16,866 nt of DNA from Pseudobdellovibrionaceae bacterium. GTDB taxonomy: Bacteria > Bdellovibrionota > Bdellovibrionia > Bdellovibrionales > Bdellovibrionaceae. The stretch lies in NCBI GenBank assembly GCA_039810425.1, contig JBDHWW010000059.1:1-16866 (forward strand), written 5' to 3'. The position numbers were made by a program, and so were the translations under genes. Below are positions 3,867 through 16,866 of this stretch, one piece after another (within the stretch, counting starts at the first letter, position 1; every line of letters starts with the position of its first letter). Below the pieces are notes generated by a model. The model was not told where the DNA came from. It ran no database searches and saw only the letters and a program-made list of their open reading frames with translations.

Positions 3867-5383
3867 GCGCGACCTCCCATGGCGGCGCCGATTTCAATTT
3901 CGTTATAATGGTTCCCACGCAGGAACTCGGCCACGATCTGTCCTTTGAACAAAACCAAAATACGATCTGACAAAGTCATGAGCTCTTCAAGTTCAGAAGA
4001 GACCAACAAGATGCCGGCCCCGCGGTTGCGGGCATCCAAAAGTTGTTCATGAATAAATTCAATCGCACCGATATCCACGCCACGCGTGGGCTTCGCCGCT
4101 AAAATAAAATCAGGATTGTTCTGCAGCTCGCGCGCGACGACAAGCTTTTGTTGGTTGCCCCCGGAAAGGCGATCGATCTGCGTATAAATATCGCGTGGTC
4201 TGACATCGAATTTTTCCATCGCGGCCTTGGTTTTGGCAAAAATATTTTGGAAATTAAAAAAGCCGAGGCGGGCGTACTCTGTGGAGTTGTGATAGCCCAA
4301 GATGAAGTTTTCATAAAGCGGGCGTCCGCTGACAACCCCGAAGCGCAAGCGGTCTTCCGGAAATGCCGCTAAACCCAAAGCGCGCACCTGAGCGGCCGTC
4401 AGTTTCACGGTTGATTGATCTTTGATTTTGATCTGACCTTTGATTTTTATATGGTGCGGATCCAGAAGCGCATAAATCAATTGATCCTGACCATTGCCTT
4501 CAACACCCGCGATGCCGACGATTTCGCCCGTACGAACTTGCAGATTCAAGTGCGCCAAAGTACCGTGCTTGTCGGCCAAATTCACATCCGTCATTTTCAT
4601 TACAAAATTCTGATTGGCAAACTGTGTGCGGCTGCTCAAAGAAAGATTCTTGATTTTACGGCCGACCATGTGCTCAGCAAGGTCCTCTACGGAGGTTTCA
4701 GAGATTTTCTTATTCGCTGTTGCCGTTCCGGCGCGCAGGACGGTCACCGCATCCGCCACAGCCATCACTTCTTTCAGTTTGTGCGTGATAATGATGATGG
4801 TGCGGCCCTCAGCCTTTAGCTTCCGCAAGTTTTTAAATAAATCGTCGATCTCTTGGGGGGTCAAGACGGCGGTGGGCTCATCCAGTATGATGATCTTTGA
4901 ATCCTGCGAAAGAATTTTCAGAATCTCAATACGCTGCTGGGTGCCGACAGAGAGCCGATGAACCGGCACATCCCAATTGATGTCGAATTGGTATTCCGCC
5001 GCGAGCTTTTGCAGGCGTGCGCGGTGTTCGCGGCGGCGGAGCCCTTGAAAGGCCTTCGTATTTTTCTGAAAGAGAAGAATATTGTCCAAAGCGCTGAGGG
5101 GTTCGGCCAACATGAAGTGTTGATGGACCATCCCGATACCGAGGTTCATCGCATCGGCGGGGGAGTGAAAGTGCACTTCTTGGCCGTGTACTTTTAAAAT
5201 CCCCTCATCGGGGGGGTAAAGGCCGAAAAGAATCTTCATCGAGGTCGATTTGCCCGCGCCGTTTTCACCCACGATGGCGTGAATGCTACCTGCGGCAACT
5301 GAAAAGCTCAACTTCTGTACAGAGATGCAATCTCCGAACTGTTTGTGAACTCCAGTGAATTCAACAGCAGGCTGGCCTGACAT
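3863..5383 (-). CDS. Nucleoside/simple-sugar ABC transporter ATP-binding protein (two fused NBDs, NupA/YufO-like)
   Basis: Walker A GENGAGKST, MVHQHF, ILDEPTAVLTPQE; second domain has LSGGNQQK and PTRGVDIGA. Confidence 0.95.
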   Translation of the reverse strand: MSGQPAVEFTGVHKQFGDCISVQKLSFSVAAGSIHAIVGENGAGKSTSMKILFGLYPPDEGILKVHGQEVHFHSPADAMNLGIGMVHQHFMLAEPLSALDNILLFQKNTKAFQGLRRREHRARLQKLAAEYQFDINWDVPVHRLSVGTQQRIEILKILSQDSKIIILDEPTAVLTPQEIDDLFKNLRKLKAEGRTIIIITHKLKEVMAVADAVTVLRAGTATANKKISETSVEDLAEHMVGRKIKNLSLSSRTQFANQNFVMKMTDVNLADKHGTLAHLNLQVRTGEIVGIAGVEGNGQDQLIYALLDPHHIKIKGQIKIKDQSTVKLTAAQVRALGLAAFPEDRLRFGVVSGRPLYENFILGYHNSTEYARLGFFNFQNIFAKTKAAMEKFDVRPRDIYTQIDRLSGGNQQKLVVARELQNNPDFILAAKPTRGVDIGAIEFIHEQLLDARNRGAGILLVSSELEELMTLSDRILVLFKGQIVAEFLRGNHYNEIEIGAAMGGRA

Positions 5384-10685: not shown

Positions 10686-11033
10686 TAGATCAATTTCTAA
10701 AGCATGTTTTGAGCGACGTTGCTTTTGGTTTTTGGGATCACGATACTCACAGCAGGCCTGAGCTCGCTGCCAAATTTGCCTCTTGATATGGGCGCGAATG
10801 TATTTTCTATACGGAGCCCGTTTTACCTGCGGCGCCGATGGTAGTGGTGCGGCAATGAGGTGGTTTCAAATTTTTGGTAGTCGCAACCTAACAAGGCCGA
10901 CAAACAGCCTGCGGAGAGCAGTTCGCGTGGATTGAAGCGCGCACGAAAAAAATTACGAAAACCAACGTCAAACGAAAAATCGGTAACGATGATATTAACG
11001 CAGGACTACCTTCGGCGGCGGAGGCGAAGTCAT
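10686..11033 (-). pseudogene. Decayed HNH endonuclease fragment
   Basis: Manual translation of 10817->10686: APYRKYIRAHIKRQIWQRAQACCEYRDPKNQKQRRSKHALEIDL. This fits the HNH pattern R.I...KR.VW.R...C.Y.D......C.S...LE.DH with the second Cys and the His lost; upstream Pro-rich linker pieces (TSPPPPKV, LPSAPQVK) are broken by stops. Confidence 0.6.
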
Positions 11034-11117
11034 TTGATCACTGCAATGTTGATGAAGGGTTGGTTAGAAAACATTAACCTATTGACCGAAATCAATCTCA
11101 ATTGGACCATCGAGTGT

Positions 11118-11765
11118 ATGACCCGCCTACTAATTTTATTTTCATTAGTGCTACCCTTCTCGGCAGCTAAATCCGTTCAAGAGGACCTCAAGGCTGTAGA
11201 AGTCGTATTCGTGCAGGACCTACCTAAGGAAGAACTCAGCGAGAAGTGCGATGTACAGGAGAAACAAATTTGTGGCGCTAAGAGCTCATTAGACTGTTCA
11301 TTTGATCGAAGGGTTTGTATGCACACGGACATGAAAAATCCACCCAAGCCGATTCGGCCTTTCATGGGAAAGAAGTTGGAATGTGATTGGGAAGAAAACC
11401 GGCAAGGGGAAGAGGCAACATCGGAAACCATACGAGCGGTGGTTCAATATGCATCGAGGGGAATTCCAGAGCCATCTTTCCACGTCAAATTCCAATCAAC
11501 AAATGATAATGATTATGACGGTCGTGAAGTTGGTTTCGGAGGTTATTGGGTCAAAAGGCGCTCGAAAGAAGGTCTTACCATCTATGAAATCCACACGGAC
11601 AAAACAGTCGCTGGCGGCAGGTGTAATAGTAAATTTATTTATGATGTTACCAAGTCGCTCATAATTCGTGAAAATAGTTTCGAGATCCGCTCTGATTTTA
11701 AATGTTCACATCTGTTATTTTTTAAGAAGCCTTATTTCACCCGGTTGTCTTGTCGGCCGCTCTGA
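11118..11765 (+). CDS. Secreted Cys-rich hypothetical protein (215 aa)
   Basis: Start re-assigned to ATG 11118 (signal-like MTRLLILFSLVLPFSAA); 8 Cys; the upstream in-frame extension overlaps the HNH remnant. Confidence 0.65.
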   Translation: MTRLLILFSLVLPFSAAKSVQEDLKAVEVVFVQDLPKEELSEKCDVQEKQICGAKSSLDCSFDRRVCMHTDMKNPPKPIRPFMGKKLECDWEENRQGEEATSETIRAVVQYASRGIPEPSFHVKFQSTNDNDYDGREVGFGGYWVKRRSKEGLTIYEIHTDKTVAGGRCNSKFIYDVTKSLIIRENSFEIRSDFKCSHLLFFKKPYFTRLSCRPL

Positions 11766-11812
11766 ATTCACTTGTTTGAAGGAAAATAGTCGTTCGGCAA
11801 AACAAAGCATAG

Positions 11813-11844
11813 CCGATCCGAATCACCTCAGGTGATTCGGTCGG
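11813..11844. terminator. Strong hairpin downstream of the Cys-rich gene (possible terminator)
   Basis: CCGA-T-CCGAATCACC-TCA-GGTGATTCGG-TCGG; no clear U tract. Confidence 0.35.
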
Positions 11845-12029
11845 TAAACTTGCTTCTAGATCTGCTACTCAAAACATCTGAGTTTTGAAACAGCCATTTT
11901 TTCTATCTGCCGCTCTGAAGTCCGCTGCGCTACTTCTGCCCATATAGGGACTTACCACTTTTGCACAGTTTTATGATCGGAGATCTCACACTCCTGGCGG
12001 GGTGTTCCGCTCGAGTCTTCTGGCCTTCG

Positions 12030-12078
12030 TTAGCCAGAGTCTGTGGGGTAGGGACGGGGGCTTAGCTTGGGTAACATA
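12030..12078 (+). repeat. 49-bp exact direct repeat, copy 1
   Basis: TTAGCCAGAGTCTGTGGGGTAGGGACGGGGGCTTAGCTTGGGTAACATA, identical to 16746-16794; flanks differ on both sides. Confidence 0.97.
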
Positions 12079-12086
12079 ATAGCTTC

Positions 12087-12952
12087 TTAGCGGTAGAGTG
12101 GGGGATTTAGGGTATCAATGATACTTTCGAATGCAGCCAAAACGCGGTTTGTTCCTCTTAAGCCTAAAGTTCCGATCACGCGCTCCGTTCTTGCGTTGCC
12201 AGTGGGCCTTCCGATGCCGCTCAGCCAAAGTTTCAAGCCCTGGATCTCGACGTTGTGCTTTGTGTACTTCGAAGCATTGGCGCTGCCATGGTCGGCAACA
12301 ACAATCGGTTTCAGTACCCCTTTAGGCAACAAGTCGAGTCGCTCGGTTGCAACAGCATCGGTCACCAGCGCCACTACTTGCAGTTTTGTAATCTGTGGGT
12401 GAAGTCCCCACGACAAAATCTTTCGCGAATACCAATCAAGCAGCACGAGTAAAAACATGAACTTTCCGTCAACTGTGACCCACGTCCAATCCATTCCCCA
12501 TAGCAGGTTCTTACGCCACGGCTCATTTAGCAACATGTCGGCCGGTTCAATCACTGGCTTTGACGGCTTCCGCTCAAATGGGTGATTCAGTCCGTGCTTT
12601 TTCATGATCTCAGCGACTTTCGTTTTACCTATGAAAACTGTCGCTCTTTTCTCAAGTTGGTATGCCACACGCCGGCAGTGCCACGACGGATTCTTCTTCA
12701 CCATCGTGACAACACGCTTTTCTTCAAGCGGCGTCACTTTGTTTCTGCCGCCACCACCGCCGTGGTTTGGACTCAAACCATTCTTTTTCCACCGGTAGTA
12801 CGATCTCGGATGGATTTGCAAATGCCCACAAATCGTCGCCACTGTCTCGGTCGCTCGCGCACCGTCAATGAACTCACGAAGTGTCTCGCGTTGAACCTTG
12901 GTCAAATGGCGGCCATATAGAGGCCCCTCTAGACCGAGCGATTCTTTTTTTT
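12087..12952 (-). pseudogene. IS3 transposase OrfB (rve/DDE), truncated and fused to a foreign tail
   Basis: WGMDWTW, LLDWYSRKILSW, ADHGS and GNARTERVIGTL; the expected C-terminal YN..R.H..L segment is replaced by GLRGTNRVLAAFESIIDTLNPPLYR. Confidence 0.85.
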
Positions 12953-13255
12953 CATCGCCTGAAGTTCGATCGAGGTTTCGAGCAGCGCCTGAGACAGATG
13001 CTCGGTCTCGAGTTTCATTTCTAAAATCACCGGATCTGCTTTCGGCTTCGGACCTCGTTTGATGTCCTTCAGCCCCGCAATCCCGCTGTGAACAAACTTC
13101 TGCTTCCAACGCGATAATTGCGCCGGTGCGATGTTCTCGCGGCGGCACACTTCGCTTGCGCCCACGCGCTCGGCCTCTAGTACCAGCTCCGCCATCTTTT
13201 CCGCAGACCGACGGTTGCGCTTCTTCTTTTCTACTTTCGAACTTTCCTGACCCAT
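12929..13255 (-). CDS. IS3 transposase OrfA (HTH)
   Basis: SAEKMAELVLEA..VGASEVCRRENI....LSRWKQKF followed by a coiled coil; ends at a slippery A-run. Confidence 0.85.
   Translation of the reverse strand: MGQESSKVEKKKRNRRSAEKMAELVLEAERVGASEVCRRENIAPAQLSRWKQKFVHSGIAGLKDIKRGPKPKADPVILEMKLETEHLSQALLETSIELQAMKKKNRSV
12944..12952 (-). other. -1 programmed frameshift signal (A8G) of IS3-a
   Basis: ATGAAAAAAAAGAAT in the orfA/orfB overlap; orfB lies in the -1 frame. Confidence 0.75.
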
Positions 13256-13478
13256 CGTGGACCCCTTCTAACATGGTTGTTCTCCTTCGAGAACAGGGGC
13301 CACTTTCCAGATTTCAACAGCTTACAGCTGAAATCCGCACACTCTATTGACTTAAATTATCTCGCTCTTTGTGACGAACGAGCCCGGACAGCACAGTTAG
13401 GGCTGCAGAAAAGATTGGTGCTTCTGAAGCGTTCGTTCGACAAAATGCTAAAGTGCGACCTTGATATAAAAATGTAGG

Positions 13479-13841
13479 TTATTTTCCAACAACCTTTTGA
13501 AGCTGGTCGACAACAAATTTATTCAAGCTTTTGTAGCCTTCCTCGTGGGATTTACGAATGAGTTGCTGATGAAGTTCGGGATTACTTCTCACAAGAAAGT
13601 CTCCACTCGCTTTAATTTTCGCAATGGGCTCTGGAATTCCTTGTTTTTGAGATACTAAAACTTCAAGTTGCCCCTCAACAGCTTCGTGGGCCATTTCTAA
13701 AGCTTCAGCAGGAGAATCTCCGTGAGTCATGCAGCCTGTGAGTTCTGTTACGGAAACAACATAAGCTTGATCTTCATCTGAGAAGTGAATGTTGTAAGAG
13801 TAATAGGGAATCAGATCCTTAATCTTTTTAGGTAATGCCAT
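13479..13841 (-). CDS. hicB: HicB-family antitoxin (120 aa, C-terminal ribbon-helix-helix)
   Basis: YVVSVTELTGCMTHGDSPAEALEMA.EA, SGDFLVR..PELH and SLNKFVV motifs; ATG 13841 overlaps the hicA stop (TAATG), with GGAGG RBS. Confidence 0.92.
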   Translation of the reverse strand: MALPKKIKDLIPYYSYNIHFSDEDQAYVVSVTELTGCMTHGDSPAEALEMAHEAVEGQLEVLVSQKQGIPEPIAKIKASGDFLVRSNPELHQQLIRKSHEEGYKSLNKFVVDQLQKVVGK

Positions 13842-14059
13842 TATTCCTCCACTGCTTTTAAAACCTGTTTTATCTGATACGGTTTTAAGTCTTTTGAGTG
13901 AGTTGCCAAAGTTATAACTTTGCCGTTTTTCAACCACTGCTCATGAGATCCCTTTTGTCGAGCCAGTACCCAGCCTAGCTGTCCTAGCAGAGTCCTCAAT
14001 TCCTGAGCTGAGATCGATCCATTTTTTAACTTTGCTAATAGCTTATCGGCTTTACTCAC
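13841..14059 (-). CDS. hicA: HicA-family mRNase toxin
   Basis: 72 aa, basic; LG.LGW...RQKGSH and LKPYQIKQV motifs; directly upstream of hicB. Confidence 0.92.
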   Translation of the reverse strand: MSKADKLLAKLKNGSISAQELRTLLGQLGWVLARQKGSHEQWLKNGKVITLATHSKDLKPYQIKQVLKAVEE

Positions 14060-14061
14060 AT

Positions 14062-14094
14062 AAACATGATATCAAAAGTGATATCATGTTTCAA
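14062..14094 (-). promoter_or_regulatory. hicAB sigma70-type promoter overlapped by a palindromic operator
   Basis: -35 TTGAAA (14094-14089), 17 bp, TG-n-TATCAT (14071-14066); perfect 13-bp inverted repeat AAACATGATATCA-N4-TGATATCATGTTT (14062-14091). Confidence 0.8.
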
Positions 14095-14252
14095 CTTCAA
14101 ATTTCGTCTCAAAACGAGAAAATATAGTCGAAGATAGCTAAGGCATTGAAAGTACTGAGTTCTAAGGTCAAATCGAAAACCTATTGGTGGCAGCTTACTT
14201 GCATTTCAAATCAGTTTAATAGTTTTGACACCAAATAAAGGATTCAAGTCTT

Positions 14253-14933
14253 ATGAAAGTAACAATGACCTCTATTCTAATGACGTTTTCAGGGCTGCTG
14301 TTGATTTCATCGACAACTATTGCATCTGGACAAGGGCAAGATGGACAAGCAGGTCCAGTCGGGCAAGTTGGACGCAATGGCCAGAGTGGAAAGATCGGCA
14401 TCAATTGGACTCCGGTAGATCCAAATCCAGAATACTTTTTTTATATTCCAATTAAATCTGGAGACGTCGAAGCTTTCCAAAAAGTTTTAGCTGGGGGAGC
14501 AAAAATCAATTGGCCGATGAGCAATATCGTGGGCCGTCCAACAGCTTTTGAAGTCGCTATGGAATCAAGATGGATCGAAGGTCTAAGAATCATGTTTCAA
14601 AACCCAGATCCAAAAAATAAACCGAGAACGTACGTTCAAGTTAAGACTGACAAAAATGTCTCTGTAAATATTTATGAATTTCTAACGTTAGGTGAAAAGT
14701 TAAACTCTGTCGGTGAATTGACAACTACAAGCTTTGCAGTGCGTACAGAAAACTTAGAAATTCTAAAAATGATGGTGGATGCCGAGACTGATTTAGAATG
14801 GCTTACCAGAGCGACTGAAAAGGTTTTGCCAACATTGACAGCAAATACTAATGGCTATGCGACATACCCTAATAATGTTGAAGCTAGAAAAGTTATTGAA
14901 AGTAAAATCGCTGAGCTCGGCGCAAAAAAATAG
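14253..14933 (+). CDS. Secreted protein with short Gly-X-Y linker and degenerate ankyrin-like repeats
   Basis: Signal peptide; GQDGQAGPVGQVGRNGQSGKIG; IKSGDVEAFQKVLAGGAKIN, GRPTAFEVA, FAVRTENLEILKMMVDA and KIAELGAK segments. Confidence 0.7.
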   Translation: MKVTMTSILMTFSGLLLISSTTIASGQGQDGQAGPVGQVGRNGQSGKIGINWTPVDPNPEYFFYIPIKSGDVEAFQKVLAGGAKINWPMSNIVGRPTAFEVAMESRWIEGLRIMFQNPDPKNKPRTYVQVKTDKNVSVNIYEFLTLGEKLNSVGELTTTSFAVRTENLEILKMMVDAETDLEWLTRATEKVLPTLTANTNGYATYPNNVEARKVIESKIAELGAKK

Positions 14934-14962
14934 TCGGCTGGCGATCGCCAGTGGCGAATATC

Positions 14963-15243
14963 TGGAGTGCGGTCACTTTCTTGGAGTCGAACAGCTTAAC
15001 GCGTTCGACGTGCGGCTGACGGTTTGATCTCTTAGTTCAAATCGTTCTTCTGTTCAAATTCTTCCGGCGGCAAATACCCGAGACTCGAGTGAAGCCGCTT
15101 CTTGTTATAAACGTCTTCGATGAACACCGGCAACCGCTCGACCACGTCGAGCATCGTGTTGTAGCCGAACATGTAAATCTCATCGTACTTCAACGTCTTC
15201 ATGAACGACTCAGTCCAAGCATTGTCGTACGGATTTCCTTTTC
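14963..15243 (-). mobile_element. IS3-family 3' remnant (IS3-b): OrfB C-terminus plus probable IRR
   Basis: Manual translation 15243->15032: KGNPYDNAWTESFMKTLKYDEIYMFGYNTMLDVVERLPVFIEDVYNKKRLHSSLGYLPPEEFEQKNDLN*; probable end TGGAGTGC at 14963. Confidence 0.85.
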
Positions 15244-15261
15244 CCCCTGTTTCAGGAAAGA

Positions 15262-16745
15262 TGTCGCCTCGGTTTGAAATTTCAGGGGGCGAGATCTGAG
15301 AGTTAAGTGAGAGCGCGTCAAAGTTATTCGAGAGAGTTCAAGGAAGCGATCGTCGCCAAGATCGTGAGTCGAGGGAATCAGACGATCGAAGAGATCTGTG
15401 AGCGAGAGGGCGTCGGCCTATCCACTGCTGCCAATTGGCTCCGGGCTCGTGCTAATGTGGCCGTTATGGCGAAGCAAAAGACAGCGAAGAAGTGGACACC
15501 TGAAGAAAAACTCAAAGCGATTATCGAGACCTCGGCAATGAGCGAAGAGGAACTCGGCGCATTCCTGCGTCGCGAGGGCCTCCACAGCCAACAGCTTCAG
15601 GAGTGGCGCGAGGAAGTTCTCAAGGGCCTTCAGTCCGCGCCGCGCAAGCCGCAGTCCAAGAAGGATGAACGCGATGAGAAAATCAAAGATCTCGAGCGCG
15701 AACTTCGCCGCAAGGACCAGGCTCTTGCCGAGGCGTCGGCGCTTTTGATCCTTCAAAAAAAAATCGACCTGATCTGGGGAAAAAAAGGCGAGGACGAAAA
15801 ATGACGGGAGCCGACCGCGAGAATGTCTTGCGGCTTGTCGAGGAAACCGTCGCCGATGGCGCGACCCAGGAGAAGGCCTGCGAGTATCTCGGTGTTACCG
15901 AGAAGTCGATTCAGCGCTGGCGTCTAAAGCCCGTGCTGGACGACCAGCGGCGTGGACCGAAGACCACGCCCGCCAACAAGCTATCAAGTGACGAGCGAGC
16001 CAATCTGATCGCTGTGGCGACGAGCGCGGAGTTCCGTGATGTGAGTCCGCATCAGATCGTTCCGCGCCTAGCTGATCGCGGCGAGTATCTGGCCTCGGAA
16101 GCAACGATCTATCGCGTTTTAAGGGCTGAGAAGCTCATGGCACACCGAGGTCGCTCTAAACCCCGTGAAGTGGCAAGGCCGAGGGCTTATGAAGCGACAG
16201 GGCCATGTGAGCTGTTCAGTTGGGATATCACCTATCTGCGTAGCCAGATCGCCGGGCAGTTCTTTTACCTGTATCTGTTTTTGGACGTTTTCTCGCGTAA
16301 AATCGTCGGTTGGGAGGTGCACGATTGTGAATCGGCCGAGCACTCGTCGCGACTTCTCACGAAGATCTGCCTCGCCGAGGGCATCCAGAAAAACCAGATC
16401 GCGGTGCATGCCGATAACGGCGGACCAATGAAGGGTGCGACGATGCTGGTGACGATGCAGCGCCTGGGTGTTGTGCCGTCGTTCTCTCGCCCTTCAGTGA
16501 GCAACGACAATCCGTTCTCAGAGTCGATGTTCAAAACGCTGAAGTATTGCCCCCAGTATCCGTCGAAGCCGTTTGCCTCGATCGAGGATGCACAAGCGTG
16601 GGTGAGCGAGTTCATTCAGTGGTACAACACCGTTCACTTGCACTCGGCGATTGGCTTCACGACACCGGAATCGCGCCATCGCGGTGAAGACACGGAGATC
16701 CTCACCAAGCGCAAAGAGGTGTACGAGGCAGCTAAACAAAAGCAC
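15262..16745 (+). mobile_element. IS3-family element, 3'-truncated (IS3-c)
   Basis: Probable IRL TGTCGCCTCGGTTTGAAA at 15262; orfA/orfB with ATGA overlap; cut off at 16745 by the 49-bp repeat; no IRR. Confidence 0.88.
15307..15804 (+). CDS. IS3 transposase OrfA
   Basis: YSREFKEAIV, KWTPEEKL, FLRREGL...QL..WR, LERELRRKDQALAEASALLILQKK motifs; A9 run at 15755-15763 is a frameshift candidate. Confidence 0.9.
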   Translation: MRARQSYSREFKEAIVAKIVSRGNQTIEEICEREGVGLSTAANWLRARANVAVMAKQKTAKKWTPEEKLKAIIETSAMSEEELGAFLRREGLHSQQLQEWREEVLKGLQSAPRKPQSKKDERDEKIKDLERELRRKDQALAEASALLILQKKIDLIWGKKGEDEK

Positions 16746-16781
16746 TTAGCCAGAGTCTGTGGGGTAGGGACGGGGGCTTAG
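15801..16781 (+). CDS. IS3 transposase OrfB (DDE intact, native C-terminus replaced by repeat-derived LARVCGVGTGA)
   Basis: SWDITY, DVFSRKIVGW, HADNGGPM, NDNPFSESMFKTLKY and WYN..HLHSAI motifs; the typical ...HPxRWS..RNW tail is absent. Confidence 0.88.
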   Translation: MTGADRENVLRLVEETVADGATQEKACEYLGVTEKSIQRWRLKPVLDDQRRGPKTTPANKLSSDERANLIAVATSAEFRDVSPHQIVPRLADRGEYLASEATIYRVLRAEKLMAHRGRSKPREVARPRAYEATGPCELFSWDITYLRSQIAGQFFYLYLFLDVFSRKIVGWEVHDCESAEHSSRLLTKICLAEGIQKNQIAVHADNGGPMKGATMLVTMQRLGVVPSFSRPSVSNDNPFSESMFKTLKYCPQYPSKPFASIEDAQAWVSEFIQWYNTVHLHSAIGFTTPESRHRGEDTEILTKRKEVYEAAKQKHLARVCGVGTGA

Positions 16782-16794
16782 CTTGGGTAACATA
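16746..16794 (+). repeat. 49-bp exact direct repeat, copy 2
   Basis: Identical to 12030-12078; begins immediately after the IS3-c codon CAC. Confidence 0.97.
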
Positions 16795-16866
16795 TTACCT
16801 GGAGCAGTAGATAGTTTGCATTATCAAGCGGCGTAGCGAACGTGCTTGTTATGAAAATATCTGCGT

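Follow-up and report, generated by a model that had tools for sequence, protein, structure and literature searches.

The 49-bp repeat is part of a longer element

The window analyzed here is the whole of contig C59 (JBDHWW010000059.1; 16,866 bp) from the 149-contig, 3.54-Mb assembly (G000) of a Pseudobdellovibrionaceae bacterium. Its right-hand part holds a hicA-hicB toxin-antitoxin pair, an uncharacterized gene and truncated insertion sequences (IS) of the IS3 type, set between two copies of a 49-bp direct repeat (Table 1). An initial annotation had read this repeat as a candidate reused end or recombination site of an undescribed mobile system. We describe it as the left part of an element of about 134 bp. 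This element is very probably a gene-less, non-autonomous derivative cut down from the right (oriIS) end of a rolling-circle transposon of the IS91/ISCR family, one whose clade carries a dif-like site downstream of the transposase gene and ahead of oriIS.

Table 1. Features in the right-hand part of the window
Feature	Coordinates	Strand	Evidence
Putative mini-element copy A, 134 bp: terminator-side end, dif-like site, leader, oriIS-like end	12031..12164	+	Unitigs, family alignment A1, end rule in relatives
49-mer copy 1, left part of element A	12030..12078	+	Exact repeat
KOPS-type octamer GGGTAGGG aimed at XerD-type arm, 15 bp away	12046..12053	+	Position; function putative
dif-like site: XerD-type arm 12069-12079, centre 6 or 7 bp, XerC-type arm to 12096/12097	12069..12097	-	Comparison with C57 dif
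oriIS-like right end, then T; IS3-a cut point	12144..12164	+	ISCR1 oriIS likeness, position behind IS91-family genes
IS3-a, 3'-truncated at the oriIS end of the element	12165..13395	-	Pfam rve/HTH; X4 record 17 spans 12165-13395
hicA-hicB toxin-antitoxin pair, cargo, 41% GC	13479..14059	-	
226-aa open reading frame, hydrophobic N-terminus, cargo, 40% GC	14253..14933	+	No Pfam match
IS3-b, 3' remnant of IS3-like element, cut by IS3-c	14963..15240	-	Translation; family label presumed from a motif, not a profile match
IS3-c, 3'-truncated by element B	15241..16745	+	NF033516 over cut-off; X4, X5 match to 16745
49-mer copy 2, left part of element B; KOPS-type octamer 16762-16769; XerD-type arm broken after 10/11 bases	16746..16794	+	
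End of high-copy IS630-type element inserted at TA, ends contig	16793..16866	-	
Left flank of A: non-coding, also at C68:942-1052 (84%), stops at element	11922..12030	.	

The two 49-bp copies were identical and on the same strand, as annotated, and a BLAST search of the assembly returned only these two, the next matches being 12 to 14 bp long (E of 0.4 or more). Unitigs from 4 of the 22 listed sequencing runs were compared to window positions 11000 to 16866; the junction evidence consists of these unitigs, which have a word length of 31 and give no phasing across the repeat, and run X1 may be the source of the assembly. Relatives of IS3-c in X4 and X5 matched the window through 16745 and diverged thereafter, bearing out the claim that copy 2 cuts the IS3-c orfB gene, and relatives of IS3-a in X2, X4 and X5 matched from 12165. 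The annotation had placed the IS3-a truncation about 90 bp from copy 1, and the intervening bases belong to the unit itself. The 49-mer is the left part of a longer element, 12031 to 12164 (the left end may be 12030), the two ends of which cut IS3-c and IS3-a. Unitig depth in X1 was 15 to 17 for single-copy sequence, 37 for 12057 to 12105, 50 for 12076 to 12165 and 301 for 16793 to 16866; a 2692-nt contig (record 2) entered the element at 12030 from a third left flank, and a second right flank left it at 12165. This implies that the element is present in about three copies (A, B and C), copy C differing from the others by one letter. The two loose-end flanks and the rest of IS3-a were not found in the assembly. 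Another X1 contig entered the element 7 bases in (12037) from a flank absent from the assembly and represents either a shortened copy or another strain.

The length of 49 bp is accidental. Positions 16793 to 16866 are the end of a high-copy element found at five other places in the assembly, where it begins with TA in all five and is adjoined in one by a DDE_3 open reading frame (ORF), marking it as IS630-type. A loose end in X1 joined the other end of this element to window sequence from 12077 onward, so that copy 2 continues past the insertion and is a full unit that has been interrupted; it stops at 49 bp because the IS630-type element inserted at its TA. The 49-mer is thus not a unit, and its right boundary in copy 2 is that of an ordinary insertion. 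The imperfect inverted repeats annotated at its termini are the ends of nothing, and it folded no better than shuffled sequences (z of 0.10 and -0.38). By unitig depth the IS630-type element has about 17 copies, and it breaks many contigs of the assembly.

Several other identities were tried and rejected. A GTAG-led palindromic repeat of the REP type, moved by a Y1/RAYT transposase, was set aside in the absence of a stable hairpin and with a linked enzyme of the Y2 type, although no search for a Y1 gene was made. For an integron attC site, neither the 49-mer nor its 141-nt surroundings gave a significant fold (z of -1.49 to 0.90) of the kind expected for a long hairpin with R''/R' core boxes, and no structure of a group II intron 3' end or of a miniature element with inverted ends was found. 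Rfam returned nothing on the repeat and two weak matches elsewhere. The first 10 bases of the unit matched one IS630 end at 9 of 10 positions, which we take as chance because no TA flanks the unit.

Nothing matches between the two flanks of copy A, and one explanation is that the assembly mispaired three nearly identical 134-bp copies, each of them a plain insertion. The lack of phasing would permit this, records 1 and 5 reach just 27 to 30 bases into the repeat, and the contig of the third copy is absent from the assembly. However, the block between the copies is real, since record 5 covers 12138 to 16775 without a break; relatives of the element likewise show no matched flanks; and the one-letter difference of copy C could make it phasable by read-length data. 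We consider mispairing very unlikely, and it would leave the identity of the element unchanged.

The element carries a dif-like site

On the minus strand, positions 12096 to 12069 read CTACCGCTAAG AAGCTA TTATGTTACCC, a dif-like site that was compared to the chromosomal dif on contig C57, ATTTCTGATAA GTTATA TTATGTAACAC. The C57 dif matches the HD100 site in PMC2731167 (here and below, papers are cited for the portions of their text that were available) and also the site of genome G001, where it is located at the GC-skew switch. The C57 dif is consistent with a Bdellovibrio-like host, as is the presence of family-type copies of the element on a Bdellovibrio plasmid. The XerD-type arm of the element was identical to that of the C57 dif at 9 of 11 positions, whereas the centre differed and may be 7 bp long; with a 7-bp centre, the XerC-type arm matched the C57 dif at 6 of 11 positions and the G001 XerC arm at 8 of 11. 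Of the 11 bases that make up the XerD-type arm, the 49-mer contains 10. The crossover-type site is this dif-like one, in the middle of the element, rather than the TTAGCC boundary that had been put forward. An IS630-type element later inserted in the XerD arm of copy B, which is for this reason probably dead as a Xer site. We rejected the possibility that the element's site is the dif of the chromosome terminus; that dif lies at C57, and a related site in G005 has the same skew sign on both sides. The assembly also encodes an FtsK whose gamma domain scored over the cut-off. What looks like an older copy of the dif-like site occupies an identical position next to one shared gene in G000 (C30:36528-36555; L010) and G005 (C3; L009), whose DNA differs on the XerD side of the site; G001 lacks the site and carries a different gene at that place, beside a tRNA-like gene.

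Both copies in the window carry GGGTAGGG, an octamer of the FtsK-orienting polar sequence (KOPS) type, facing the XerD arm, the side on which FtsK must load (PMC2673442). GGG.AGGG ranked second for strand skew among the 15,960 gapped octamers of the genome (117:30 on G-rich strands), with other G-rich words close to it. Exact matches accompanied the element in G000, G029 (4 of 5 listed), G504 (5 of 9) and G040 (1 of 5) and in none of the other 12 sources listed; shuffling gave chances of 0.4 to 2.6% for four flanks, which were chosen after the fact. The octamer may be a by-product of the GC-rich left end, and while it could well be a functional FtsK motif, we lean slightly against this. GGG.AGTG was still more skewed genome-wide (163:35) and is a possible second KOPS-type word in this lineage.

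Distribution of the element in related genomes

A relaxed site pattern matched 18 of 181 other genomes of the family, about half of the matches lying in coding DNA and being dropped. Fifteen hand-picked sites were then used to build an alignment (A1) and a model (R1). The model gave matches in at least 18 of the 149 further genomes of the family, including three that had contributed to building it. As the search scored 20 candidates per genome, its counts are lower bounds: at least 18 matches in G504 and at least 9 each in G029, G526 and G014. Only the profile reached the family, 76-bp and 136-bp DNA queries having matched 0 of 60 and 1 of 400 other genomes, respectively. Contig C175 of G029 holds three direct copies with one shared centre and cargo between them, contig C49 of G526 also holds three copies, and the XerD-type arm was retained across lineages with differing flanks. 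Three half-copies ended at the border of arm and centre or inside the centre (G029 C238, G526 C34 and G504 C221), and three more ended within the arms.

With hand-written end patterns, 41 full-length copies of 121 to 135 bp were collected. The base to the left of the unit was C or T in 31 of 34 solo copies and G in all 7 copies with the motif TATTTTACC, and no target duplication longer than 3 bp was found in the 34 solo copies or in all 41, in agreement with the annotation. A GC-rich subterminal palindrome, as expected for terIS, may be present in the G504, G511 and G029 types, where it was seen by eye; the 49-mer of the window gave no better fold than its shuffled versions. Exact-pattern scans gave no match in viral contigs, and none and then one unrelated match in both metagenome and genome contigs. 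A looser pattern gave 44 viral matches that looked like chance, many of them in coding DNA, and matches with an AGCCAAA arm in genus g3 all lay in one coding context and were dropped.

The element lies behind one clade of IS91/ISCR transposases

Several copies in relatives were adjoined by a shared motif and an ORF encoding a Y2 HUH transposase, with PF04986 and PF14319 over their cut-offs and NF033538 just over. The initial annotation had named a tyrosine recombinase or an HUH/Y1 nuclease as candidate enzymes; both types are implicated, but the HUH enzyme is of the IS91/ISCR Y2 kind, not Y1/RAYT. Loci were also selected by this protein rather than by the arm (30 retrieved, 27 examined). Their order was transposase gene, stop codon, about 60 bp, TATTTTACC, unit and oriIS look-alike end, and solo copies began exactly after the position of TATTTTACC. 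In a tree of 27 proteins, 14 transposases formed one clade (support 99/97), with G477 and G542 on long branches. Among the 12 clade genes with downstream DNA, 11 were followed by TATTTTACC, 10 by the XerD-type arm and 7, as judged by eye, by both arms, whereas the XerD-type arm was found in none of the 13 rows outside the clade (in ISCR2 and G463 this region is interrupted). Across the wider phylum, where matches came from 14 of 300 other genomes, the arm was present in two of three close loci with enough downstream DNA, that of G133b, from another family, being identical to the arm in the window, and 1 of 12 distant loci matched a loose arm pattern. No transposase of the clade was found in viral contigs.

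Window positions 12144 to 12164 aligned with the ISCR1 oriIS printed in PMC13023784, and the ends behind clade genes resembled the ISCR 22-mer of that paper, with G040 nearly identical and the window weaker but aligned. The complete plasmid pBdHAGR1 (AP029177.1), from the cultured strain Bdellovibrio sp. HAGR004, carries one clade gene, annotated for its 3' part only, and three solo copies 99 to 100% identical to the downstream end of that gene, the site being degenerate. It also carries two copies of the G511 type, in direct orientation and about 6 kb apart (28.6-34.6 kb), in which the site is complete, as it is in the end behind the G209/G511-type transposase. At locus L228 (G399 C1:2314855-2315405), the first third of a clade transposase gene is fused directly to the dif-like site and oriIS end. 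The source assembly has a full IS91/ISCR-like transposase at C55:345-1811 and a fragment at 4822-5109 of the same contig; a 2.6-kb contig (C143:1461-2063; L045) encodes an integron integrase over the TIGR02249 cut-off.

Proposed mechanism and alternatives

The anatomy of the element, its link to one transposase clade and its fixed ends are evident from the sequences compared, and use of its site by Xer proteins is probable. We favor, with fair confidence, a mini-element derived from an oriIS end and mobilized in trans, which seeds XerCD sites as it moves and whose direct pairs bound a movable block. A Y2 HUH transposase acting in trans would start at oriIS (12164) and copy leftward until it met a terminator built into the element immediately behind the gene, and the DNA moved would mostly be a piece of 120 to 135 bp. 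The annotation's claim of a reused end acted on in trans stands, with the trans action inferred. Insertion would occur between a pyrimidine and T without duplication; the pyrimidine to the left of the solo copies and the T to the right are compatible with such a cut, though the right edge was hand-fitted and T16746 may not conform to it, and the IS91-family target tetranucleotide has T in second place (PMC13181058). Each insertion would plant a site for the host XerC and XerD with a centre unlike that of the chromosomal dif. In the window, direct copies A and B would bound a block from 12165 to 16745 with hicAB, the uncharacterized gene and the IS3 stumps; the block may have been moved by read-through from B to the terminator of A, or may have been excised and joined elsewhere by XerCD or homologous exchange. 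Either read-through or reshuffling at the site would account for the cut IS3 genes not resuming.

Several observations weigh against this explanation. No transposase of the dif-carrying clade was found in the source assembly, although its absence is not shown, since the surroundings of two of the three copies are unassembled; the only full-length IS91 gene, at C55, belongs to another clade and has a classical oriIS and no dif-like site. The XerC-like and XerD-like genes of the assembly had TIGR02225 and TIGR02224 as their best matches, both under the curated cut-offs. As T16746 is absent from IS3-c relatives, the left end can be placed only to within one base, and the pyrimidine rule may not hold for it; no close IS3-c relative covering this base was found, the matches being 71 to 76% in 4 of 181 genomes and 48% in viral contigs. 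T followed the unit in 40 of 41 copies, but this count is partly circular because the right edge was fitted by hand, and the count of arm conservation in relatives is partly circular as well. No empty target site was found for any of the 34 solo copies, the one match being a self-match. KOPS was present in 0 of 11 copies in G014 and 0 of 5 in G526 and is absent from most lineages. Partial copies broke at the site in about six cases and elsewhere in at least nine, and 5 of the 12 clade genes, including the spreading pBdHAGR1 type, are followed by a degenerate site or by none at all.

The degenerate sites and the many breaks away from the site, as well as the disruption of copy B by IS630, would also fit the same mini-element with a site that serves the parent only, in resolving tandem or cointegrate rolling-circle products, or is a relic. 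Solo copies would then be mobile debris, their unmatched flanks having arisen by read-through, deletion or RecA exchange and not by XerCD, and IS801 fragments are mainly seen as homology for recombination (PMC3189936). We regard this as rather unlikely, as the XerD-type arm has been kept in lineages with different flanks, the breakpoints of three half-copies fall on the border of arm and centre or inside the centre, and the direct arrays of G029 C175 share one centre.

In G029 and G526, sites occur in arrays that include cargo but lack a transposase. This could instead suggest that the unit is only a pdif- or cer-like Xer site enlarged by accessory sequences and not itself transposable, and that IS91 genes lie next to it because they target it. 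Targeting of dif sites is known for IS1202-family elements (PMC10132070). However, an oriIS look-alike forms the outer end of the unit and stands as far behind the gene as is usual; both ends are sharp to the base, each cutting an IS3 reading frame; solo copies share 99 to 100% identity with the gene's own downstream DNA; and a Xer crossover cannot produce ends 38 and 68 bp from the site. This reading is highly improbable.

Relation to known systems

In the IS91 family, transposition begins at oriIS and finishes at terIS or a similar sequence, without target duplication; the elements can be acted on in trans, form right-end miniatures and carry upstream DNA on read-through (PMC13181058 and PMC3189936). 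Like members of this family, the element described here has neither terminal inverted repeats nor a target duplication longer than 3 bp. The right-end miniatures of IS801 (229, 360 and 679 nt; PMC3189936) resemble the element in keeping the right end with an internal left end, lacking a transposase, making no duplication, being moved in trans and being able to carry upstream DNA. They differ in that their stops are chance tetranucleotides and they arise afresh from the full element, whereas here one motif is conserved behind the gene throughout the clade, there are more solo copies than genes, and the mobile piece contains a dif-like site. As in ISCR elements (ISCR1 and ISCR2/ISVsa3), the linked Y2 HUH transposase, about 41% identical to that of ISVsa3, has an oriIS-like end behind it and no conserved upstream end was seen. 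Unlike the clade, ISCR1 has no XerD-type arm within 330 nt behind it (the ISCR2 record ends there), and the clade proteins fall far below the ISCR clade Ia cut-off. For ISCR28, "sandwich" capture by two oriIS has been described (PMC12772301).

The pdif/dif modules of Acinetobacter likewise have extra dif-like sites with a conserved XerD arm and a variable centre, which bound accessory genes, including toxin-antitoxin pairs, and occur in rows (PMC11705084 and PMC12907356). Their pairs are often inverted or have different centres, and neither accessory sequences nor KOPS were found on the plasmids studied, whereas the sites described here are direct, lie inside a 130-bp transposon end and have KOPS on the XerD side in four lineages. 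The literature searched, with most subscription papers and ISfinder outside its scope, yielded no report of an IS91/ISCR element carrying a dif/Xer site. The parts, an IS91/ISCR miniature and a dif-like site, are already known, and their combination is a variant rather than the wholly undescribed system first proposed.

We know of no explanation for how extra dif-like sites come to flank accessory genes in dif modules. A transposon end that carries a dif-like site and whose base-sharp ends cut unrelated genes would offer a direct, testable route to them. More tentatively, and with more doubt than belief, the clade may have turned its origin end into a vehicle that delivers XerCD sites, some with an FtsK loading motif, almost arbitrarily, the DNA between them becoming stackable modules that host XerCD can excise. 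If true, this would be an integron-like system assembled from two unrelated enzymes and a concrete route to the birth of dif modules. Short unannotated repeats at island seams in these predators would likewise mark rolling-circle activity that IS annotation has overlooked.

Other features of the window

Within the block, the ORF at 14253-14933 combines its low GC content with a short Gly-Gln repeat after the hydrophobic N-terminus. To the left of copy A, about 250 bp of non-coding DNA (window positions 11790 to 12030) includes a palindrome of 32 bp (11813-11844); the whole stretch recurs at C68:800-1060 of the same assembly. There it lies between an ankyrin-like ORF, labeled by eye, and a tRNA-like gene, and it had no Rfam match.

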